Notes: generated from the letters alone by a model not told the origin. A stretch of 64,000 bases of DNA from Solirubrobacteraceae bacterium (GCA_036496915.1 DASXKH010000015.1:902-64901), one strand, 5' to 3'. Shown: positions 3,933 to 46,079, numbered from the stretch's first letter. Numbers and translations are program-made.

Positions 3933-5333
3933 CTAATAGCTCATGGCCGGGGTCGTGGGCGGCGTGGCCGAGCTCGCCCCGTCGGGCCCGTCCTCGTCGG
4001 GGTCCAGGCCTTTGCGTGCGTAGCGGAGCATCAAGATCAGGTCGGCTGCTCCCAACCCGATGTAGATCAGCACGAAGGCGATCAGGCTGATCCAGATATC
4101 GGTGGCGGTGACCGAGGGCGAGTTGGCGTTGACGGTCTTCATCAAGCCCTGCACGATCCAGGGCTGGCGCCCGCTCTCGGTCAGCAGCCAGCCGGCGGTG
4201 TTCATCACGAATGGCGTCACCACCGCCCCCAGTCCCGCGCGCAGAAACCACTTCGAGCGCGCGAGCGTGCCCCGGTGCACGAGCCACGCGCCCCACAGCG
4301 CCAGCAGCGCGATCAGCGACCCCAGGTAGGCCATCACGCGCATCGACCAGTATTGGATGAACACGTCGGGGATGTAATTACCGGGCCCATACTTGGCTTC
4401 GCCTTCGCGCTGCAGCTGGTTCAGCCCGACGACCGCGCCGTTCCAGGTTCCGGTCGCGAGCACCGACAGCAGATGCGGGATCGCGATCAGCTGCGTCGGG
4501 GTCTTGTCATTTTTACCGCCGCCGATCTGAAACACCGAGAACGAGCACGGCCGGCAGTTTTCCCACTGCGCCTCGGACGCGGCGATCTTGGCCGGCTGGT
4601 ATTTGGCCTCGATTTCACCGAGCTTGTTGCCGATGAACATCTGCAGCAAAATCGCCGGCAGCAGCACCAGCACCGACAGCCGCGCCGTGGGATAGAAGGC
4701 CTGCACTTCGCGCTGCCCCAGCAGATACCAGGCCGAGATCGCGAGCATCACCAGCGCGCCCGTCACCAGCGAGGCGAGGATCACGTGCACGTATCCCCAC
4801 AGGAACGTCGGATTTGTGAACAGCGCCCAGACGTTGTTCAGCACCGGCTGCCCGTGGCCGTTCAGCACATAGCCGACCGGGTGCTGCATCCACGAGTTGG
4901 CCGCCAAGATGAACAGCGCTGAGAGCATCGCGCCGCCCGCCACCAGCCAGATGCAGGCCAGATGCACGCGCTTGGGCAGCCGATCCCAGCCGAAGATCCA
5001 CAGCCCCAGGAAGGTGGACTCCAAGAAGAACGCCGCCAGGCCCTCCATCGCCAGCGGGCCGCCGAAGACGTCGCCGACGAAGCGCGAATAGGCCGACCAG
5101 TTCATCCCGAACTCGAACTCCTGCACCAGCCCGGTGACGACCCCGATCGCGACGTTGATCGTCAGCAGCACGCCGAAGAAGCGCACGATGCGCCTGTACT
5201 CGGGCCGCTGATTGCGATGCCAGCTCGTCTGCAGCAGCGCGACGAGGAAGGCCAGCCCGATCGTCACCGGCACGAACAGGAAGTGGTAGATGCTCGTCGT
5301 TGCGAACTGCCAGCGCGCAAGATCGTTGGTCAT
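3933..5333 (-). CDS. cydA: Cytochrome bd ubiquinol oxidase subunit I (short Q-loop type)
   Basis: ARWQFATTSIYHFLFVP, GLVQEFEFG, FFLESTFLG, NSWMQHPVG, GRQPWIV. Confidence 0.96.
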   Translation of the reverse strand: MTNDLARWQFATTSIYHFLFVPVTIGLAFLVALLQTSWHRNQRPEYRRIVRFFGVLLTINVAIGVVTGLVQEFEFGMNWSAYSRFVGDVFGGPLAMEGLAAFFLESTFLGLWIFGWDRLPKRVHLACIWLVAGGAMLSALFILAANSWMQHPVGYVLNGHGQPVLNNVWALFTNPTFLWGYVHVILASLVTGALVMLAISAWYLLGQREVQAFYPTARLSVLVLLPAILLQMFIGNKLGEIEAKYQPAKIAASEAQWENCRPCSFSVFQIGGGKNDKTPTQLIAIPHLLSVLATGTWNGAVVGLNQLQREGEAKYGPGNYIPDVFIQYWSMRVMAYLGSLIALLALWGAWLVHRGTLARSKWFLRAGLGAVVTPFVMNTAGWLLTESGRQPWIVQGLMKTVNANSPSVTATDIWISLIAFVLIYIGLGAADLILMLRYARKGLDPDEDGPDGASSATPPTTPAMSY

Positions 5334-5378
5334 CCAACGAGCAGTCTACGCCTGACCCTCGGACGTTTCTTTGCAGTT

Positions 5379-5472
5379 CCGAGGGCGCATGCGCCCTCGG
5401 CCGGACGGTGCATGCACCGTCCGGGGAAACCGCGCATGCGCGGTTTCCGGGAGGGTCGCATGCGACCCTCCC
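5379..5472. repeat. Four abutting perfect palindromes (22, 24, 24, 24 bp), each centred on GCATGC
   Basis: CCGAGGGCGCATGCGCCCTCGG (5379-5400), CCGGACGGTGCATGCACCGTCCGG (5401-5424), GGAAACCGCGCATGCGCGGTTTCC (5425-5448), GGGAGGGTCGCATGCGACCCTCCC (5449-5472). Confidence 0.95.
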
Positions 5473-5479
5473 CATCCGG

Positions 5480-6535
5480 TCAGCTTTCGTGCTCGGCCGG
5501 CTGCTTGGGCTTCTCGTCGTGCCCGCCGAACCCCTTGCGCATCGCCGACTGCACTTTGCCCGCGTACTCGTCCAGCCCGCGCGAGCCAAAGCGCGAGTAC
5601 AGCGCCGCCGTGAGCACGGGCGCGGGCACGCCCTCCTCGATCGCCGCGATCGACGTCCAGCGGCCCTCGCCCGAGTCCGACACGCGGCCGGCGAACTCCT
5701 GGAGCTTGGGGGACCTGAACAGCTCCTGCGCCGTCAGGTCCAGCAGCCACGAGCCGACCACGCTGCCCCGTCGCCACACCTCGGCGACCTCGGTCGTGTC
5801 GATCTCGTACTTGTAGAACTGCGGGTTCTCCAAAGGGCTCGTCTCGGCGTCCTGCTCCTGTGAGCGCAGGCCCGCGTCGGCGGAATGGATGATCGACAGG
5901 CCCTCGGCGTAGGCGGCCATCAGCCCGTACTCGATGCCGTTGTGCACCATCTTCACGAAGTGCCCCGCGCCGTTGGGGCCACAGTGCAACCAGCCCTGCT
6001 CGGACGGGCTCGGCTCGCCGCTGCGCCCGGGCGTGCGTGGGGCGGAGTCCACCCCGGGCGCGATCGTGGCGAACAGCGGGCTCAGGCGCTGCACGACCTC
6101 GCTCTCGCCGCCGATCATCAGGCAGTAGCCGCGCTCCAGCCCCCACACGCCGCCGCTCGTGCCGCAGTCGACGTGATGGATGCCCTTGCCCTTCAGTTCC
6201 TTGGCATGGCGGATGTCGTCGTGGTAATGCGTGTTGCCGCCGTCGATGATCGTGTCGCCCGGCTCCAGCGCCTGCGCCAGCTCGGCGATCGTCTTGTCGG
6301 TGATCTCGCCGGCCGGGACCATCACCCAGGCCGTGCGCGGCTTCTCCAGCTTGGCCACGAGCTCCGCGATCGTGCCCGCGCCCTGCGCGCCGTCGGCCGC
6401 GAGCGCCGCCACCGCGTCGGCGCTGACGTCATAGCCGACGCAGCGGTGCCCGTCGCGCAGCAGTCGCCGCACGATGTTGGCGCCCATGCGCCCCAGTCCG
6501 ACCATCCCCAATTGCATAGATGTGTCAGTCGCCAT
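5480..6535 (-). CDS. gnd: 6-phosphogluconate dehydrogenase, decarboxylating (short type)
   Basis: GMVGLGRMG, IIDGGN, VDCGTSGGVWG, GHFVKMVHNGIEYG, DSGEGRW, SAMRKGFGGH. Confidence 0.95.
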   Translation of the reverse strand: MATDTSMQLGMVGLGRMGANIVRRLLRDGHRCVGYDVSADAVAALAADGAQGAGTIAELVAKLEKPRTAWVMVPAGEITDKTIAELAQALEPGDTIIDGGNTHYHDDIRHAKELKGKGIHHVDCGTSGGVWGLERGYCLMIGGESEVVQRLSPLFATIAPGVDSAPRTPGRSGEPSPSEQGWLHCGPNGAGHFVKMVHNGIEYGLMAAYAEGLSIIHSADAGLRSQEQDAETSPLENPQFYKYEIDTTEVAEVWRRGSVVGSWLLDLTAQELFRSPKLQEFAGRVSDSGEGRWTSIAAIEEGVPAPVLTAALYSRFGSRGLDEYAGKVQSAMRKGFGGHDEKPKQPAEHES

Positions 6536-10789: not shown

Positions 10790-12640
10790 GTGCTCGTCCC
10801 CAGAGATGACATCCGCAACGTCGCGATCGTCGCGCACGTCGACCACGGCAAGACCACGCTCGTCGACGCGATGCTGTGGCAGTCGGGCGCCTTCCGCGTC
10901 GGACAGGACGTGGCCACGCGCGTGCTGGACTCTATGGACCTCGAGCGCGAGAAGGGGATCACGATCCTCGCCAAGAACACCTCGCTGCGCTACCGCGACG
11001 TCAAGCTGAACATCGTCGACACCCCCGGGCACGCCGACTTCGGCGGGGAGGTCGAGCGTGGGCTGACGATGGTGGACGGGGTGCTGCTGCTCGTGGACGC
11101 CTCCGAGGGTCCGCTGCCGCAGACGCGGTTCGTGCTGCGCAAGGCGCTCGAGGCGGGGCTGCCGGTGATCCTCGTCGTCAACAAGGTCGATCGTCCCGAC
11201 GCGCGCGTGGCGGAGGTCGTGGACGAGGTGTACGAGCTGTTCCTCGACCTCGACGCCGACGAGCACCAGATCGAGTTCCCGATCGTCTACTGCAACGCCA
11301 AGGCCGGGGTTGCCTCGCTCGCGTACGACTCGAATCTGCCTGGTGGGATCAAGGTCGAGGGCGGCAACCTCGCGCCGCTGCTGGACCTGCTGCTGGAGCG
11401 CATCCCCGCGCCGACATATGACCCCGAGCACCCGCTGCAGGCGCTCGTGACGAACCTCGACGCCTCCCCCTACGTGGGCAGGCTGGCGGTCTGCCGCGTG
11501 CGCCACGGGACCATCAAGAAGGGCCAGCAGATCGCCTGGTGTCGCGCGGACGGCTCGATCCAGAAAGCGCAGGTGGCCGAGCTGTACGTCACCGACGCGC
11601 TCGACCGTGTCGACGCGCCCGCGGCGGGGCCGGGGGAGATCATCGCCGTGGCTGGCATCGCCGAGGTGACGATCGGCGAGACGCTCGCCGATCCCGGCGA
11701 TCCGCGGCCGCTGCCCGTGATCACCGTGGACGAGCCCGCGATGTCGATCACGCTCGGCGTCAACACCTCGCCGCTGGCGGGCAAAGACGGGAGCAAGCTG
11801 ACGGCCAGGCAGATCAAGGCCCGGCTCGACCAAGAGCTGATCGGCAACGTCTCGCTGCGCGTGCGCGAGACCGCGCGGCCGGACACGTATGAGGTGCAGG
11901 GCCGCGGTGAGCTGCAGCTGGCGGTGCTCGTGGAGATGATGCGGCGGGAAGGCTTCGAGCTCACCGTCGGGCAGCCGCACGTGGTCGAGCGCGAGATCGA
12001 CGGCAAGCGCCACGAGCCGGTCGAGCGCCTGTCGGTGGACGTGCCCGAGGAGCACGTCGGGACGGTCACGCAGCTGCTGGCGGCGCGGAAAGGGCGGATG
12101 GAGCACATGACCAACCACGGCACGGGCTGGGTGCGCATGGACTACCTCGTGCCGGCGCGCGGGCTGATCGGGTTTCGCACCGAGTTTCTCACCGAAACGC
12201 GCGGCACCGGGATCATGCACCACGTGTTCGACCGCTGGGAGCCGTGGGCGGGTGAGCTGCTCACGCGCCAGAGCGGCGTGCTCGTGGCCGATCGCCGCGG
12301 CGAGACGGTCACGTTCTCGCTGTTCACGTTGCAGGAGCGCGGCTCGCTGTTTGTGGGCCCCGGCGAGGAGGTATACGAAGGGATGATCATCGGCGAGAAC
12401 GCCCGCTCGGATGACCTCGACGTGAACCCGGTCAAGGAGAAGCACCTGACGAACATGCGCTCATCCACTTCCGACGTGCTCGTGCGCCTGGACGCGCACC
12501 GCAAACTGACGCTCGACGAGGCGCTCGAGTTCGTGCGCGAGGACGAGGCCGTCGAGGCGACGCCCTCCTCGGTGCGCATGCGCAAGGTCGTGCTGCCGAA
12601 GGTCGAGCGGTTGAAGGCGATGCGCAACGCGCGCAAGTGA
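10790..12640 (+). CDS. typA: Translational GTPase TypA/BipA
   Basis: [70 protein letters not shown]. Confidence 0.97.
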
Positions 12641-18220: not shown

Positions 18221-19062
18221 ATCCCCACCTCACGTGGAACCTGGCGGCGGACGTGCGCCAGCTGGTGGAATACAGGTTCATGGTCAACGCCCTTCTGGCG
18301 GCGAGCGTGGTGGCGGTGATGGCGGCGGTGGTGGGCTGGTTCATGGTGCTGCGGCGGGAGACGTTCGCGGGACACACGCTGTCGATGATGTCGTTCCCGG
18401 GCGCGGCGGCGGCGGCGCTCATGGGGCTGCCGCTCGCGGCGGGCTACTTTGCGTTCTGCACCGCCGGCGCGCTCGTCATCGCCGGCGCCTCTGGCGTGGG
18501 TGGAAGGCGCGCGCCGGCACAGGAGTCGGCCGTCATCGGGACGGTGGGGGCGCTGGCGCTGGCGCTGGGATTCCTGCTGCTGAGCGTGTATGGCGGAGTG
18601 CTGGAGAGCCTGGAGTCGCTGCTGTTCGGCTCGATCCTGGGAGTCACGCGTGGGCAGGTTCTGACCCTGGCGATCGTGGCGGTGTGCGTGCTCTCGCTGC
18701 TCGCCCTCGCGGGGCGCCCGCTGCTGTTCGCGTCCATCGACGAACCGCTCGCCCGCGCACGTCGCGTGCCTGTCGGCTCGCTGTCGGTGGCGTTCCTGCT
18801 GATGCTCGGGCTCGCGGTCGCCGCGACCGCGCAGATCACGGGCGTGCTGCTGGTGTTCGCGCTGCTCGTGGCGCCGGCCGGGATCGCGCGCGAGCTGACC
18901 CCGCGCATCGACGCCGGTCTCGCACTGAGCGTGCTGCTGGGGCTCGTGATCGCGTGGGTCGGCCTGGGATTGTCGTACTTCACCAACTACTCCCCCGGGT
19001 TCTACGTGAGCACGATCGCGCTCGTGCTCTACGCGGGCGCGCGCGTCGCGCGGAGCGTGTGA
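18217..19062 (+). CDS. Metal ABC transporter permease 1 (ZnuB-like)
   Basis: GWFMVLRRETFAGHTLS, LLFG, RPLLFASID. ATGA overlap. Confidence 0.92.
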   Translation: MNPHLTWNLAADVRQLVEYRFMVNALLAASVVAVMAAVVGWFMVLRRETFAGHTLSMMSFPGAAAAALMGLPLAAGYFAFCTAGALVIAGASGVGGRRAPAQESAVIGTVGALALALGFLLLSVYGGVLESLESLLFGSILGVTRGQVLTLAIVAVCVLSLLALAGRPLLFASIDEPLARARRVPVGSLSVAFLLMLGLAVAATAQITGVLLVFALLVAPAGIARELTPRIDAGLALSVLLGLVIAWVGLGLSYFTNYSPGFYVSTIALVLYAGARVARSV

Positions 19063-19847
19063 TGGGGTTCTTTGACAATGCGCTGCTCGCGGGCTCCTGC
19101 ATCGCGATCGCGAGCGGTCTGATCGGCTGGTTCGTGGTGCTGCGAGTACAGGTGTTCGCCGGAGACGCGCTCAGCCATGTCGCGTTCACCGGCGCCCTGG
19201 CAGCGGCCGCGGCGGGACTGGATCTGCGTCTGGGGCTGTTCGTCGCGACCGTCGCGGTGGCGCTGGGGCTGGCGGCGCTGGGCGAGCGCGCGCGCGCGGA
19301 CGACGTGACGATCGGCATCGTGTTCGTGGGGACGCTCGGACTCGGCGTGCTCTGCCTGGACCTGTTCAACGCGGGCGCGGCCGGGGCGAACGGGACGATC
19401 GCCGCGCGCGCCCTGTTCGGCTCGATCTTCAGCCTGACGGCGGGCGAGGCTCAGCTCGCGGCGCTGATCGCGGCCGGGATCGTGGCTGCGCTGCTGAGCA
19501 TCGGTCGGCCGCTGCTGTTCGCCTCGCTGGACGAGTCGGTCGCGGCCGCCGGCGGGGTGCCGGTGCGGGCGCTCGGGCTCGCCTTCCTGGCGCTGCTCGG
19601 CCTCGACGCCGCCGAGGCGACGCAGGCGGTCGGCGCGCTGCTGCTGCTCGGTCTGCTCGCGGCGCCGGCCGGCGCCGCTCATCGACTGACCGCGAGCCCG
19701 TACCGAGGGATGGCGTTGTCGGCCACGATCGCGCTGGTCTCGATGTGGATCGGACTGGCTTTGAGCTACTGGATCGCGGTGTTGGCACCGGGCAGCATGG
19801 TGGTCCTCGTGGCGGCGGCGTTCTACGCTCTTACTGCCCTGCTATGA
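19062..19847 (+). CDS. Metal ABC transporter permease 2 (ZnuB-like)
   Basis: GWFVVLRVQVFAGDALSHVAF, LFGSIF, RPLLFASLD. TGATG overlap. Confidence 0.92.
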   Translation: MGFFDNALLAGSCIAIASGLIGWFVVLRVQVFAGDALSHVAFTGALAAAAAGLDLRLGLFVATVAVALGLAALGERARADDVTIGIVFVGTLGLGVLCLDLFNAGAAGANGTIAARALFGSIFSLTAGEAQLAALIAAGIVAALLSIGRPLLFASLDESVAAAGGVPVRALGLAFLALLGLDAAEATQAVGALLLLGLLAAPAGAAHRLTASPYRGMALSATIALVSMWIGLALSYWIAVLAPGSMVVLVAAAFYALTALL

Positions 19848-20305
19848 GCCCCGAGTCGCACACCGATACCTGGTCTGAGCGCGCCGAGGCGACGCTGGCC
19901 GCCACTGGGCACCGTCGCGGGGGCGCCAGACGCGCGCTGCTGGAGCTGTTGGACGGGCAAGAGTGCGCGCTTACCGCGCACGAGATCGAGGAGGCGCTGC
20001 GGGCGCGGGGCAAGGGTCGGCGCGTGGTGAGCCGGGCGAGCGTGTATCGGATCCTCGACGAGCTCGAGCGGTTGCGGTTGGTGCAGCGAGTGGAGACCGG
20101 CCAGGCGATGGTGCGCTACGAGCGCGTGTGCGAGGACCACGACCACCACCATCATCTCGTGTGCGACGAGTGCGGCGTGGTGATGCCCTTCTCCGATCCC
20201 GCGCTGGAGCGCGCGATCCAGACGCTCAGCGAGCGGGTGCCGCTGGCGGTGTCCGAGCACGAGATCGTGCTGCACGGCGCCTGCCGAGAGTGTCGCGCGG
20301 CGTAG
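19844..20305 (+). CDS. Fur-family regulator, Zur-like
   Basis: SRASVYRIL, HHHHLVCDECG, HGACREC. ATGA-coupled to the metal permease. Confidence 0.9.
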   Translation: MSPESHTDTWSERAEATLAATGHRRGGARRALLELLDGQECALTAHEIEEALRARGKGRRVVSRASVYRILDELERLRLVQRVETGQAMVRYERVCEDHDHHHHLVCDECGVVMPFSDPALERAIQTLSERVPLAVSEHEIVLHGACRECRAA

Positions 20306-41812: not shown

Positions 41813-42907
41813 TCAGCCGCTGAGCGGCGAGCCGTTGCATTCCAGTTTCGTGACGGCTTCCTTGGACTTCGCCAGGATCGAGGACGGCAGCGCCGCGTAG
41901 TCGGCCTGAGCGAGCACGGACTGGCCCTGTGAGCCCAGACCGTAGTTCAGGAACTGCACGACGCCCTTGGCGGCCGCTTCGCCGCCGGGGATGCCGGCCT
42001 TGCACATGTCCTTGTAGACGACCACGAACGTCTGCGAGGTGATCGGGTAGGCCTGCGCGCCGACGGGGTTTGAGATCTTGATCCCGAGGTTCGCCGGCAC
42101 GACCACCACCGAGGCGGCTGCGCTGGTCGAGGCCAGGCTCGGCGCGACGAAGTTGCCGGCTTTGTTCTTCACCGATGCGTAGGTGAAGTTGTGCTGCAGC
42201 GCATAGGCCTGCTCGACGTAGCCGATGGCGCCCGTGGTCTGCTGCACCGCTCCGGCGACGCCGGCGTTGCCCTTGGCGCCCGTGCCGGTCGGCCACTGCA
42301 CGTCCTTGCCTTCGCCGACCTTGCTCTTGAATTCCGGTGCGACCGCCGACAGGAAGCCGGTGAAGCCGGCCGTCGTGCCGGATGAGTCCGAGCGGTGAAT
42401 GACCGTGATCGGGGTGCTCGGCAGCGAGACGCCAGGGTTCAGCGCCTTGATCGCGGCGTCGTTCCAGGTTTTGATCTTGCCCAGGTAGATGTCGGCGATC
42501 GTCGTGCCTTCGAGCTTCAGGCCGGTCTGCACGCCGGGGAGGTTGTAGGAGACGGTGATCGCGCCCAGGAACATCGGGATCTGCTGGACGGGGCCGACCT
42601 TTTCAAGCGACGCGAAGTCGGCAGGCTTCAGCGGTGGGTCCGAGGCGCCGAAGTCGACGGTCTTGGCCGCGAGCGAGGTGATTCCCGCCCCCGAGCCGAC
42701 CGCCTGGTAGTTGACCGTTAGGGGCGAGAGCGACGACGCCCACTGCTGGTAGACCGGTGCCGCGAACGTCGAGCCGGCGCCGGAGATCGTGCCCCCGGTG
42801 CTGCTCGATGACGACGAGCTTGAGCTTGAGGAGCTGGAGCCGCAGGCACCGAGGCCGAGCGCCAGCGCCGCGACGCCTGCGAGCGCGCCAATCTTGTTAT
42901 GGATCAC
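41813..42907 (-). CDS. pstS: Phosphate-binding lipoprotein
   Basis: Lipobox LGAC, Ser linker, GAGSTF, GSGAG, FGASD, HRSDSSGTT, AYPI. Confidence 0.96.
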   Translation of the reverse strand: MIHNKIGALAGVAALALGLGACGSSSSSSSSSSSSSTGGTISGAGSTFAAPVYQQWASSLSPLTVNYQAVGSGAGITSLAAKTVDFGASDPPLKPADFASLEKVGPVQQIPMFLGAITVSYNLPGVQTGLKLEGTTIADIYLGKIKTWNDAAIKALNPGVSLPSTPITVIHRSDSSGTTAGFTGFLSAVAPEFKSKVGEGKDVQWPTGTGAKGNAGVAGAVQQTTGAIGYVEQAYALQHNFTYASVKNKAGNFVAPSLASTSAAASVVVVPANLGIKISNPVGAQAYPITSQTFVVVYKDMCKAGIPGGEAAAKGVVQFLNYGLGSQGQSVLAQADYAALPSSILAKSKEAVTKLECNGSPLSG

Positions 42908-43011
42908 TGAGAGTCTCTCCCTCTACTGGGTTATGTGGTGCCGGTCGCCACGCCGCGAGCGTTTGCACGCAAGCGGAGTTCCCTGCCGGCCGATGTTGGC
43001 TTGCGTAAGTC

Positions 43012-43467
43012 TCACGAATCCCCCACGGCACCGATGTGAACATTTCGTAAAAGCGCGCCGGTGGGCTCTTCGGTGGCCTCGGAAACGTCCACCGTCTCGC
43101 TCGCGGCGCCGCCCCCGCTGCCGGCCTCGCGCGCGGGCTGAGGCTGGAAGCGGTAGCCGAAGCCCGGATGGGTGTGGATGAAGCGACGGTCGGGCATCGC
43201 CGTCTCGAGCTTGCCCCGCAGCTTGCTCACGTAGACGTCGACCGAGCGGTCGCCGGGTCGCAGCTCACCGCCCCAGACCTCGGCGTAGAGCGCCTCGCGC
43301 GTGACGATCGCGCCGGCGTGCCGGGCCATCGCCGCGAGCAGTTCGAACTCGCGCACCGACAGCGTCAGCGCCCGTCCCGTGGCCAGCACGAGACCCTCGC
43401 CGAGCCGGATCTCCAGTTCGCCGGCGTAGAGGGTGCTCGTGTTCTCAGCAGCGGCCGCCACGGGCAC
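43012..43467 (-). CDS. Winged-helix (OmpR/PhoB DNA-binding domain)-only protein
   Basis: LSVREFELL, RSVDVYVSKLRGKL, HTHPGFGYRF. No receiver domain fits before the divergent DUF47 promoter. Confidence 0.85.
   Translation of the reverse strand: MPVAAAAENTSTLYAGELEIRLGEGLVLATGRALTLSVREFELLAAMARHAGAIVTREALYAEVWGGELRPGDRSVDVYVSKLRGKLETAMPDRRFIHTHPGFGYRFQPQPAREAGSGGGAASETVDVSEATEEPTGALLRNVHIGAVGDS
43036..43051 (-). promoter_or_regulatory. PHO-box-like repeat upstream of pstS
   Basis: Minus strand TTTACGAAATGTTCAC; TTTAC and TTCAC are 11 bp apart. Confidence 0.45.
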
Positions 43468-43503
43468 ATAGCCTTGCCTGGACCGTCTCGGGGCGGGTTG
43501 CGA

Positions 43504-43536
43504 AGTCGTGATCGAGTCGTGAAGAACTCGTGAAGA
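43504..43536. promoter_or_regulatory. Three 11-bp direct repeats (PHO-box-like) in the wHTH/DUF47 divergent promoter
   Basis: AGTCGTGATCG AGTCGTGAAGA ACTCGTGAAGA (TTCACGA on the minus strand); CATAAT -10 box at 43561. Confidence 0.65.
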
Positions 43537-43574
43537 GAGCCCGCCGCCTCGGTGGAGGTCCATAATCTCCGCGG

Positions 43575-44204
43575 ATGAGCCTGTTCACACGCCCGATCGA
43601 CACGACCCTGGCGGCCCTGCTGGAGGACGCGGGGCGCAACGTCGAGCGCTCGGCGCTGCTGCTGCGCGAGCTGCTGCGCGCCTTCCCCGAGCACGCCTCG
43701 GTGGCGCAGGAGCTGGGCGCGTGCGAGCAGGAGGGCGACCGCATCACCCACGACATCATCCACCGCATGGGCGGCGGGCGGCGGGTGCGCGCGCCGTTCG
43801 ACGCGGGCGACGGCTACGCGCTGGCGACGGCGATCGACGACGTCGTCGACTACACCGAGCAGGCGGCGGCGCAGCTGGACCTGTACGGGGTCGAAGCGCC
43901 GATGGAGCAGGCGGTGGAGTTCGCCGACGTGCTCGTCGCGGCCGGCGCGGAGATCCTGGGGGCGCTGCGCTGCCTGCACAGCGGCGGCGAGCTCGGCCCG
44001 CACCTGGTGGAGATCCACCGCCTGGAGAACGAGGGCGACCGGCTCCAGCGCGATGCCGTGACCTCGCTGTTCGCGGGCGGCATCGACCCGATGGTGGTGA
44101 TCCGCTGGAAGGACATCTTCGAGTCGCTGGAGGCGGCGGTGGACGCTTGCGAGACGGTCGCGCACGTGCTCGAGGGGATCACCTTGAAGCGCAGACGGCG
44201 CTGA
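43575..44204 (+). CDS. DUF47 family (PhoU-like) phosphate transport regulator
   Basis: EQEGDRITHDI, LATAIDDVVD, IHRLENEGD, WKDIFESLEAAVDACE. Confidence 0.92.
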   Translation: MSLFTRPIDTTLAALLEDAGRNVERSALLLRELLRAFPEHASVAQELGACEQEGDRITHDIIHRMGGGRRVRAPFDAGDGYALATAIDDVVDYTEQAAAQLDLYGVEAPMEQAVEFADVLVAAGAEILGALRCLHSGGELGPHLVEIHRLENEGDRLQRDAVTSLFAGGIDPMVVIRWKDIFESLEAAVDACETVAHVLEGITLKRRRR

Positions 44205-44223
44205 GGAAAGCTGATGTTGTGTG

Positions 44224-44247
44224 GCCCAGGCCGCATGCGGCCTGGGC
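44224..44247. repeat. Solo 24-bp perfect palindrome centred on GCATGC
   Basis: GCCCAGGCCGCATGCGGCCTGGGC, between convergent genes; same length and core as the 5379-5472 array. Confidence 0.9.
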
Positions 44248-44254
44248 ACAGCAA

Positions 44255-44989
44255 TCACCCGAAGGTAGTCGCCGGAGCGCTCGCTTCCAGCCGGGCCCCG
44301 CTCGGGTCGCCCTGCAGGAACGCCTGAAACGGCAGCGACGCGCCCGCGCCGACTTCCGGCAGCACCGCTCTACCCGCCGCGACCACCTGTCCGGAGCGGC
44401 GCGCGAGCACGTACACGACGAGGTTCTGCTGGATCAAGCTCGACCCGTTGCGCACCGTGCCCGCTGCGCCGGTCGTGCCGCCTTCTTCGCTCGCGTGCAC
44501 TGCGCTGACTTCGATCCGCGGCAGGGCTCCATTCACGCTGGGTGCTTCGCCCACGATCGCGCTGACGCTCGCCGGCGTGCCCGACGCGAGGATCTGATCG
44601 TCGATCCACGTCTGCGTGCCATGCGCCGCCAGCGAGCCCAGCGAGGTCAGCGCCGGTTCCAGGCCCGCAGTGTTGTTCTGGAAGAGAATCGCCCCATGCG
44701 CGTCCTTGACCGTGAGCGCGACCGGGACCGCCCGCAGCGCCCGCGTGGAGGTGTTGCGCAGGGTGATCACGGCTGCGGCGCCTTCGTGGCCGTGCACGAT
44801 CGTCGCGCTCAGCACGCGCACGTCGCCGCTCGGCTTGGCGATCGTCAGGCCTTTTTCGGCCAGGCGCGTGTGATGGGCGGCCTTTTCGAGCTTCGCGCTT
44901 TTCTCGGCCGTCGTCTCGCACGCGCTGAGCGAGACCGCGAGCGCGGCCGCCGTCAACGCCGGCGCGAGCACCCTCGCGAGCGCTCTCAC
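44255..44989 (-). CDS. Lipoprotein with two FxLYD-like Ig domains
   Basis: Lipobox LSAC; TLRNT...TVKDAHG and GTVRNG...GQVVAAG...GASLPF beta-sandwich patterns. Confidence 0.75.
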   Translation of the reverse strand: MRALARVLAPALTAAALAVSLSACETTAEKSAKLEKAAHHTRLAEKGLTIAKPSGDVRVLSATIVHGHEGAAAVITLRNTSTRALRAVPVALTVKDAHGAILFQNNTAGLEPALTSLGSLAAHGTQTWIDDQILASGTPASVSAIVGEAPSVNGALPRIEVSAVHASEEGGTTGAAGTVRNGSSLIQQNLVVYVLARRSGQVVAAGRAVLPEVGAGASLPFQAFLQGDPSGARLEASAPATTFG

Positions 44990-45054
44990 CTGCCCTGCAC
45001 GTCTGTGCACGGCCGGCGAACACGGCACGAGGGGGAGTGGGGCGGCGGGCTCAT
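44986..45054 (-). CDS. 22-aa mini-ORF bridging pstB2 and the lipoprotein gene
   Basis: ATGA overlap with the pstB2 stop and GTGA overlap with the lipoprotein start; MSPPPHSPSCRVRRPCTDVQGR. Confidence 0.4.
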   Translation of the reverse strand: MSPPPHSPSCRVRRPCTDVQGR

Positions 45055-46079
45055 CCGAACGCCCCGCCGACGTAATCGCGCGTGCGCTGGTTGCGCGGCG
45101 CGCCGAAGATCTGCGCGCTCGGGCCGTACTCGACGAGCTCGCCCAGGTGCATGAACGCGACGTGATCGGCCACGCGCATCGCCTGCTGCAGGTTGTGCGT
45201 CACGATCACGATCGCCACGTCCGAGCGCAGCTCCACGATCAGCCGCTCGATCGTCGCCGTCGAGATCGGGTCCAGGGCCGAGCACGGCTCGTCGAGTAGC
45301 AGCACCTCCGGCCTGACCGCCAGCCCGCGCGCGATGCACAGCCGCTGCTGCTGGCCGCCCGACAGGCGCAGCGCGGGATGGTCGAGGTCGCCCGCCACCT
45401 CCTCGTACAGCCCCGCCCGCCGCAGCGCCGCGACCACCTCCGGCTCCAGCTCGCGGCGCGAGCGGCGCCTGCGGCGCCGTCCCGGGGCGTGCTCCTCGCG
45501 CAGTGCATAGGCGACATTCTCATAGATGCTCATCGGGAACGGGTTCGGCTGCTGAAAGACCATCGAGATGCGCCGCCGCAGCGCGTTGACCTCCATCGTC
45601 TCGACCTCCTCACCGTCCAGCGCGATCCGTCCCGCGCGCGTCGCGCCGTCGGTGATCTCCGTCAAGCGGTTCAGCGAGCGCAGCAGCGTCGTCTTGCCCG
45701 AGCCCGACGCGCCGATCAGCGCCAGCACCTCGCCCTGGCGCACCGGCAGGCTCACGTCGCGCACGACCCAGCGATCGCCGTACGCGAGCCACACGCCTTC
45801 GATCGACATCCGCTCGATTGTCGCGCCGGTCGGAGCCAAGGCATTCGCGGGGGTGCCGGGGATCGCCGCGACCGCGGCCGCGTGGCCGTTCTGGGCGAGC
45901 GTCCCGGTCGCCGGGGCGCCCGCGAGGCCAGGGCCGCCCGTTTGCCCCGGGCTGTCAGCCGCGAGTCCTGTCGCCGGGTCCGGCGGAGCGCCCGCGGGCG
46001 TGAGCGGACGCGGTTCGACGATCGTGGGGGCGCCGCCTCCGGCGATCCGGCGCGCGCGGGGCGGTTGCGTGGGACTCAT
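45051..46079 (-). CDS. pstB: Second phosphate ABC ATP-binding subunit
   Basis: [47 protein letters not shown]. Confidence 0.93.
   Translation of the reverse strand: MSPTQPPRARRIAGGGAPTIVEPRPLTPAGAPPDPATGLAADSPGQTGGPGLAGAPATGTLAQNGHAAAVAAIPGTPANALAPTGATIERMSIEGVWLAYGDRWVVRDVSLPVRQGEVLALIGASGSGKTTLLRSLNRLTEITDGATRAGRIALDGEEVETMEVNALRRRISMVFQQPNPFPMSIYENVAYALREEHAPGRRRRRRSRRELEPEVVAALRRAGLYEEVAGDLDHPALRLSGGQQQRLCIARGLAVRPEVLLLDEPCSALDPISTATIERLIVELRSDVAIVIVTHNLQQAMRVADHVAFMHLGELVEYGPSAQIFGAPRNQRTRDYVGGAFG

Follow-up and report, generated by a model that had tools for sequence, protein, structure and literature searches.

An array of four abutting perfect palindromes, each centred on GCATGC, lies at positions 5379-5472 of a 64,000-nucleotide stretch of DNA from a Solirubrobacteraceae bacterium (GCA_036496915.1 DASXKH010000015.1:902-64901), in the spacer between a gnd-like gene and cydA. 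This whole stretch, hereafter the window, is part of a 69.5-kb Joint Genome Institute (JGI) soil-metagenome contig. With a probability of about 60%, we attribute the array to a dispersed, probably mobile, non-autonomous repeat made of hairpin units, of which it would be one copy. Such a repeat would resemble the repetitive extragenic palindromes (REPs) and bacterial interspersed mosaic elements (BIMEs) as well as the Rickettsia palindromic elements (RPEs), and its symmetry would be kept at the level of DNA. The initial annotation had offered three alternatives, namely a REP/BIME-like non-autonomous element, a cruciform or protein-binding array, and an RNA processing element. The first of these is the best fit to copies that are dispersed, mostly extragenic, polymorphic and arranged as ordered composites, and is partly supported.

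The array reads CCGAGGGCGCATGCGCCCTCGG (unit 1, 5379-5400, 22 bp), CCGGACGGTGCATGCACCGTCCGG (unit 2, 5401-5424, 24 bp), GGAAACCGCGCATGCGCGGTTTCC (unit 3, 5425-5448, 24 bp) and GGGAGGGTCGCATGCGACCCTCCC (unit 4, 5449-5472, 24 bp). These units have no strand of their own and follow each other without a spacer, and direct re-reading of the sequence agreed with the initial annotation on this point. In a 24-bp frame (5378-5401) unit 1 has a mismatched outermost pair. As DNA hairpins the units reach −11 to −13 kcal/mol each, with −12.0 kcal/mol for unit 2. A polar tail, AACTGCAAAGAAA on the minus strand (5366-5378), adjoins unit 1, whereas on the other side the 7-nt spacer CCGGATG (minus strand) leads to the TGA stop of gnd (5480-5482; together 5473-5482). 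In the window, with a G+C content of 68.8%, only five perfect palindromes of at least 22 bp are present, all of them GCATGC-centred: the four array units and a solitary unit at 44224-44247. Three phased cores were expected 0.00 times in 100 shuffles and found twice. The array is not an artefact of assembly: the source sample has been assembled independently (run X1), and one Logan contig of 469 nt obtained in this way spans 5302-5770 with 0 differences. The same kind of array also occurs in many independent assemblies.

The view that the array is not CRISPR-like (CRISPRs being short palindromic repeats that are clustered and regularly interspaced) was borne out: it has neither the identical direct repeats nor the unique spacers of about 30 bp of a CRISPR array, there being no spacers at all and no conserved repeat beyond a common 8-bp centre. 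Rfam 15 gave 0 matches at gathering score in the whole window, and the look-alikes seen in 5300-5560 at permissive E-values (Atu_C8, sX14, miRNAs) were rejected as sub-threshold hairpins. A tRNA/tmRNA search found none, and plasmid BLAST with the array as query gave no match. Avoidance of GCATGC as a restriction site was not seen; outside the units the window holds 14 such sites, where its composition predicts about 22.

A metagenome scan for the cores alone (GCATGCR-N15-17-YGCATGCR-N15-17-YGCATGC) returned at least 120 loci. Among the matches listed, 61 loci had a G+C content of at least 0.64; in 50 of them all three matched cores lay in perfect palindromes of at least 20 bp, and five further ones were partly decayed arrays. 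The low-GC matches were ordinary satellites. The family thus delimited comprises, among the matches listed, about 60 high-GC soil contigs with arrays of 3-8 abutting units, the centres of which are 23-25 bp apart, leaving 0-1 nt between units and no linkers. The centre follows the consensus Y-R-CATG-Y-R, in the forms CGCATGCG (164 units), TGCATGCA (51), CACATGTG (13) and TACATGTA (2). A unit of 24 bp consists of an invariant CATG, flanking R:Y and Y:R pairs, and arms of nine pairs that are G+C-rich and hypervariable. A polar tail, which reads AAC(A/T)(G/A)C outward and is often AACAGCAATCA-like, is present on one side of about half of the arrays; the first six bases of the window tail fit this motif.

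The arms are hypervariable in sequence and nearly invariant in symmetry. Of 219 units, 185 were distinct, and information content was high at the centre only. At arm positions 4-11 from the centre, 1741 of 1752 pairs were Watson-Crick, and G.T or A.C combinations occurred only 3 times. The 24-bp limit was sharp, position 12 being paired in 182/219 units and position 13 in 21/219. When 150 distinct units were compared, 98.6% of cells were paired, against 58% in shuffles, and at pairs 2-10 both sides had changed in 540 cells and one side only in 0. In a control of 795 kb from other high-GC taxa, no GCATGC- or ACATGT-centred palindrome of at least 18 bp was found, and only one centred on CCATGG. 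Five CCATGG-centred palindromes of 16-18 bp in Acidimicrobiia (L009 3658-3673, 13783-13800 and 19857-19872; L013 2256-2271; L063 4009-4024) were judged to be due to chance; three of the five (L009 3658, L009 19857 and L013 2256) are in frame with a coding look upstream. Viral contigs yielded 14 pattern matches, none of the array type. Three related phage-like contigs with a G+C content of 0.40 (L203 4263-4284, L204 8495-8516, L205 3397-3418) contain the palindromes GAGACAACGCATGCGTTGTCTC and AGACAAGGCATGCCTTGTCT, which are unrelated to the high-G+C family.

The family is carried by a soil Solirubrobacterales lineage (Solirubrobacteraceae-like). The closest genome found was a Solirubrobacterales metagenome-assembled genome (MAG), L001, with a Gnd protein 89% identical. 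In the DNA analysed, array density was roughly one per 30-60 kb. The repeat appears to be undescribed: literature searches on the motif, or on REPs in Solirubrobacterales, found nothing specific. Unexplained 'false CRISPRs' are reported to be prevalent in Conexibacter woesei (PMC5294841) and may be arrays of the present kind.

Dispersal is seen in the order of the units. The series of unit types 1-4 of the window recurs, with symmetric differences, in L084, L118 and (reversed) L001, that is, at four non-orthologous loci in all. Unit 1 is homologous by rank to unit 1 of the other three arrays, unit 3 is identical in L118 and only one symmetric double change away from its counterpart GGAAGCCGCGCATGCGCGGCTTCC in L001, and the 1-nt spacer after unit 3 is kept in three of the four arrays. 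Across all arrays, 22 pairs shared at least three collinear units (5.9 expected) and 97 of 231 arms were identical to an arm in another array (31 expected), whereas near-duplicate units never occurred within one array. Because whole ordered sets of units recur at unrelated loci, the array acts as one composite element. The description of the arms as unrelated consequently stands within the array and fails across the family, where each unit has close relatives of the same rank at other loci.

Further evidence comes from sites that lack the array. The gnd-cydA spacer of L001 contains neither array nor tail, and five abutting units are found 7.5 kb away. Contigs of related strains from runs X2 and X3 skip 5353-5478 and have 11 nt in its place, and X4 skips 5353-5507; the tail stretch 5366-5378 is likewise missing from the array-free spacers of L001, X2 and X3. 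The comparison of orthologous spacers proposed in the initial annotation thus gave four related lineages without an array at this site, and the window array is an insertion-type polymorphism. On the cydA side, the alignment of X2 and X3 to the window extends from cydA up to and including 5352, and L001 shares the stretch from AGGCGTAGACTG to the ATG of cydA. Directly 5' of this ATG, window positions 5334-5352 (AGGCGTAGACTGCTCGTTGG) are common to L001 and aligned across by X2 and X3, whereas the remainder of the spacer is not conserved. The array-free spacer of L001 carries at 11050-11075 the sequence CCGGGCGAGCATCCCCGG followed by AATC, either a decayed single unit with tail or a small hairpin only.

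Arrays at orthologous positions also differ in the number of units. The solitary fifth unit of the window, GCCCAGGCCGCATGCGGCCTGGGC (44224-44247, no strand), is found 19 nt beyond the stop codon of a gene of the TIGR00153 family, and the tail ACAGCAATCACCC comes next to it at 44248-44260. Tail-like sequences in imperfectly inverted arrangement, GCTGATGTTGTGTG ... ACAGCAATCACCC, flank the unit (44210-44260). In L118, which is orthologous to window positions 42258-45479 (79-85% identical), five units take the place of this one. Whole-unit differences were also found within the orthologous groups L129/L133/L152/L185 and L183/L194. L175, considered as a second filled/empty pair with the window near 58.2 kb, was too diverged to align.

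Two of 64 arrays are in frame with a coding look on both sides, and 62 are not. One of the two is an array of five units (120 nt; L188 9812-9931) in leuS, where it keeps the reading frame of the linker that joins the catalytic domain of leucyl-tRNA synthetase (LeuRS) to its anticodon-binding domain. Four perfect units each are present at the same place in L216 (10588-10683) and L218 (10456-10551), and the site is empty in L217 (about 11356-11400, no units). The linker of L188 LeuRS, the closest homologues of which are from named Solirubrobacteraceae, has about 45 residues more than that of T. thermophilus LeuRS. Among 111 LeuRS homologues, 19 had extended linkers of 54-95 residues, the remainder having 31-46, and most of the extended ones showed signatures of translated units (PHAA, GSHATLP, SAHAPT, AHV, SRMRE). 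The leuS arrays, which thus occur in several Solirubrobacteraceae lineages, are translated as 8-residue modules containing HA or HV. Since 24 bp correspond to 8 codons, units can sit in frame in tolerant protein linkers. A hammerhead likeness of the flank CTGATGAGGA...GAAC was considered and rejected: the core GAAA/A15.1 is absent, the likeness is confined to two loci, and the empty leuS site of L217 identifies it as host sequence.

The leuS arrays allow homologous units to be compared in place. Between L188, L216 and L218, with flanks 83-92% identical, these units differ by 10 symmetric double changes and 2 single ones, the latter both at the outermost position. These differences between orthologous arrays show that the dyad symmetry is preserved in situ, translated DNA included, and the three arrays look like the products of different whole-unit losses from an ancestor of about seven units. 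The proposal of selection on structure, or of a mechanism that maintains the arms, is supported by these symmetric double substitutions. The stronger form of that proposal, a mechanism that literally regenerates unrelated arms, is not needed, because the units have homologues in other arrays. Since G.T/G.U-type pairs are near-absent and neither orientation nor coding status is relevant, we infer that the constraint probably acts on DNA or on both strands.

In the other in-frame copy, at L138 4428-4523, four units bordered at either end by tail-like sequence fall in the C-terminal part of a gene for an ABC-F type ATPase. In L001 the open frame of a glycoside hydrolase family 15 gene (18440-20044, minus strand) continues across the array of five units and stops at 18440, and in another frame stop codons immediately adjoin the array. 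Either the array provides some 50 C-terminal residues, or a frameshift is present in the long-read MAG close to the end of the gene.

A dispersed mobile repeat could have reached these places by single-strand, hairpin-recognising mobilisation in trans, of the REP/RAYT (REP-associated tyrosine transposase) or IS200/IS605 type, in which the CATG loop or centre would be recognised. New copies, placed in whichever orientation, would usually end up within a few nucleotides of the stop codon that precedes them, and no duplication of the target would result. The absence of such duplications, the polarity of the tail and the purine/TGA-rich flank opposite to it recall this kind of spread. When direct repeats on the two sides of arrays were compared, the longest equalled those of a control with mismatched flanks; the only one of 9 bp, CAGAGATCC, around the L188 leuS insertion, is within chance expectation, and 7-bp repeats in L185, L163 and L200 are anecdotal. 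The preferred flank, TGA/purine-rich and opposite the tail side, is a hint. After insertion, arrays would be retained, changing through symmetric double substitutions and through the addition or removal of whole units. Their symmetry may be maintained by hairpin-templated correction (template switching at quasi-palindromes), by selection for recognition of a hairpin or cruciform, or by both; template switching can create, repair and maintain perfect stems (PMC8794818, PMC7202029).

Several observations weigh against this attribution. In a tblastn search of the 2.27 Mb of fetched loci, the query E. coli RayT had no match with E below 1, and among these loci no gene family recurred next to arrays as a candidate for the mobilising enzyme. 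The units are without the asymmetric tag that defines REPs, and the persistence of orthologous arrays through 10-20% flank divergence could point to a host function. The filled and empty sites that could be compared come from related but not near-identical strains, and the counts come from fetched loci.

A more specific proposal, which we put forward tentatively and consider rather less than an even bet, is that the 24-bp palindrome is itself the unit of propagation. A putative structure-specific enzyme other than a classical RAYT would recognise it by nothing but its CATG centre, and its arms would be kept identical by hairpin-templated DNA copying. If such self-maintaining modules exist, they would form a class of bacterial repeat not described so far, and arrays could drift freely, gain or lose whole units, colonise gene ends and protein linkers as in leuS, and add 8-residue modules to the latter.

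Among known systems, REPs and BIMEs are the nearest in kind. They are short (20-40 bp), G+C-rich, dispersed and mostly extragenic palindromes with complementary stem changes within families and occasional intragenic copies (PMC3733652). The present 24-bp units are likewise dispersed, mostly extragenic (62/64), located at gene 3' ends, variable between strains, and single or clustered. REPs and BIMEs are mobilised by RAYT, an IS200-like HUH tyrosine transposase whose gene typically has the repeats on its flanks. The claim that the array differs from classical REPs was confirmed by the absence of the asymmetric GTAG/CGTC tag and by the hypervariable arms. Being fully symmetric, the units cannot stand head-to-head or tail-to-tail; nothing but the 8-bp centre is constant, whereas REP stems are conserved within families; and the units abut without the linker motifs of BIMEs, in which units alternate in orientation, several different ones forming an array in conserved order. 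A classical GTAG-tagged REP, GTAGGGGCGACGCATGCGTCGCCCCTAC, occurs twice in L181 (1048-1075 and 4104-4131, 3 kb apart), with partial tandem copies up to about 4180. It belongs to a conserved-sequence family of a different organism and shares the GCATGC centre by chance.

RPEs, which Ogata and co-workers are said to have described in 2000, are reportedly selfish palindromic elements of roughly 100-150 bp that are inserted in frame in protein genes, including essential ones, and translated. The leuS arrays, of 96-120 bp, in frame and translated, are alike in this respect. RPEs, however, are conserved sequences forming one long hairpin in AT-rich Alphaproteobacteria, whereas the present element is a chain of independent 24-bp palindromes, mostly extragenic, in Actinomycetota of about 70% G+C. 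With this composition and architecture, homology to Rickettsia RPE families, which were compared by description only, is very unlikely.

Palindrome-associated transposable elements (PATEs) derived from IS200/IS605, and hairpin-dependent single-stranded DNA transposition in general, share with the arrays a plausible recognition of structure, polar ends and the absence of target-site duplication; PATEs, however, have one imperfect subterminal hairpin per end and defined cleavage tetranucleotides, whereas here 3-8 perfect palindromes occur with no defined cleavage site. Miniature transposable elements with inverted repeats (MITEs) of DDE origin differ from the arrays, which have no target-site duplication, a one-sided tail and no clear terminal inverted repeats. 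In organelles (sponge mitochondria, Volvox, Lobosphaera), selfish short hairpin-forming palindromes invade intergenic DNA and sometimes genes (PMC2800124, PMC2670323, PMC4524435). They belong to other genomes, have other sequences, and show neither a regular 24-bp unit nor an invariant CATG centre.

The position of the arrays relative to genes brings in the best-surviving rival explanation. Of 66 arrays, at least 35 begin no more than about 40 nt beyond the stop codon of a flanking gene, often 0-8 nt, and six take up the space between convergent genes; arrays are found in both orientations. In the window the order on the minus strand is the gnd-like gene (6535->5480), 7 nt, the array, 45 nt, cydA (5333->3933) and cydB. 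The gnd-like gene encodes an NAD(P)-dependent 6-phosphogluconate dehydrogenase (NF007161, E 1.6e-136; PF03446, PF00393) and cydA subunit I of cytochrome bd oxidase (PF01654). Gene order and profile matches accordingly agree with the context first described, the gnd stop on one side of the array and cydA on the other. Within gnd, window positions 5899-5972 show a contig depth in soil runs raised by at least 100-fold (to about 13,000), which belongs to a very conserved part of gnd of many soil bacteria and is unrelated to the array.

Placement of the array in the leader of cydA, as also stated in the initial annotation, is doubtful. A scan for the sigma-70 promoter consensus found none; a putative -10-like hexamer, TAGACT (5343-5348, minus strand), was seen on inspection of the sequence 9 nt ahead of the ATG of cydA, in the conserved stretch described above. 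Its position suggests the -10 element of a leaderless actinobacterial promoter of cydA downstream of the array, and with the promoter there, the array would lie at the 3' end of the gnd transcript. The element would then have been inserted between the gnd stop and the probable leaderless promoter. In the gnd transcript it could fold into four independent 10-bp stems with CAUG loops, with a predicted energy of −106 kcal/mol (z −8.4) for the array RNA, and the stems may form a 3' barrier against exonucleases or read-through. An effect of this kind on gnd, as terminator or mRNA stabiliser, is suggested by the fold and would be a by-product, not the reason for the existence of the element.

If that effect were instead the reason, the arrays would be host-encoded multi-hairpin terminators or stabilisers of mRNA 3' ends that arise and evolve in place, loop and stems being selected for RNA function and dispersal being only apparent. 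Such an origin agrees with arrays 0-35 nt after stop codons, often filling the gaps between convergent genes, and with the very stable independent hairpins just described. Intrinsic terminators, including tandem and bidirectional ones of high-GC Actinobacteria, are likewise stable G+C-rich stem-loops right after stops and between convergent genes, and a need to work on both strands there could explain pairing by Watson-Crick pairs only. A preprint describes E. coli REPs as 3' untranslated region elements (bioRxiv 10.64898/2026.03.23.713779). However, between 5000 and 5900 there are 0 terminator-like sites and no T-run or U-tract, and in the sense of gnd the tail AACTGCAAAGAAA is A-rich. Termination needs no conserved loop, and G.U pairs, which RNA stems tolerate, are near-absent. 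Nor would terminators arising in place be expected as one ordered composite at non-orthologous loci, be missing at orthologous sites from relatives with the same genes, or occur in frame in the essential leuS and in an ABC-F gene, places in which efficient termination would do harm. Intrinsic terminators thus differ from these multi-copy, collinear arrays with presence/absence variation, and we regard this origin as rather unlikely. More generally, the near-absence of G.U pairs, the occurrence in either orientation and the in-frame leuS copies weaken the RNA processing alternative, that is, a purely RNA-level role.

The dispersed-repeat reading also has to be weighed against an array of double-stranded binding sites or cruciforms for a dimeric protein that reads YRCATGYR, such as a nucleoid-associated protein, a topoisomerase or a regulator, with a chromosomal or regulatory role, for instance on cydAB. 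The sole invariant part being an 8-bp palindromic centre, and the symmetry being at DNA level and independent of orientation, speak for it, as does the precedent of BIMEs, which bind IHF (integration host factor) and gyrase (background in PMC3733652). A duplex binder, however, gives no reason for self-complementary arms or for a sharp 24-bp limit, and a spacing of 24 bp puts successive centres out of helical phase. No gene class is linked to the arrays, most of which are at 3' ends and not at promoters. A binding role of this kind is therefore improbable, although a cruciform-specific binder would be compatible with a dispersed mobile repeat.

Still more doubtful is a construction of units anew on a CATG-containing primer, by snap-back or self-primed synthesis, in which 24-bp units with new arms would be added and the arms truly regenerated. 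It would account for the fixed unit length, the invariant centre with hypervariable arms, the whole-unit differences between orthologous arrays and the lack of near-duplicate units within one array. However, most arms have close or identical relatives elsewhere and unit order is conserved, which fits copying with symmetric drift, and the differences between the leuS arrays are explained by differential loss from the ancestor of about seven units. The arms show no convincing excess of matches to local sequence (9-mers, 14 vs 9; 8-mers, 33 vs 17), and we know of no candidate enzyme that builds palindromes. Finally, an artefact of assembly or sequencing, or a chance cluster of palindromes, has nothing in its favour but the general hazard that palindromes pose to assemblers, and is negligible beside the identical X1 contig, the shuffle expectation of 0 and the same architecture in JGI, ENA, NCBI and long-read MAG assemblies.

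In summary, among selfish hairpin repeats the present one is unusual in that its arms vary while their symmetry stays perfect, its CATG centre is invariant and its 24-bp module preserves the reading frame. In high-GC soil metagenomes, arrays of this kind can mislead gene callers, CRISPR finders and assemblers, and they may serve as strain-level markers. With about 1750 arm pairs that are almost all Watson-Crick, and with orthologous copies that differ by symmetric double changes, the family provides an uncommonly clean natural data set on the perfection of palindromes, in which the long-debated mode of compensatory evolution, selection through mismatched intermediates or conversion by template switching, becomes directly testable in a bacterium. 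It would extend selfish hairpin DNA of the REP and RPE type to the Thermoleophilia, an abundant and little-studied group of soil Actinomycetota in which we found no described REP-like family, and it includes the in-frame colonisation of an essential aminoacyl-tRNA synthetase.
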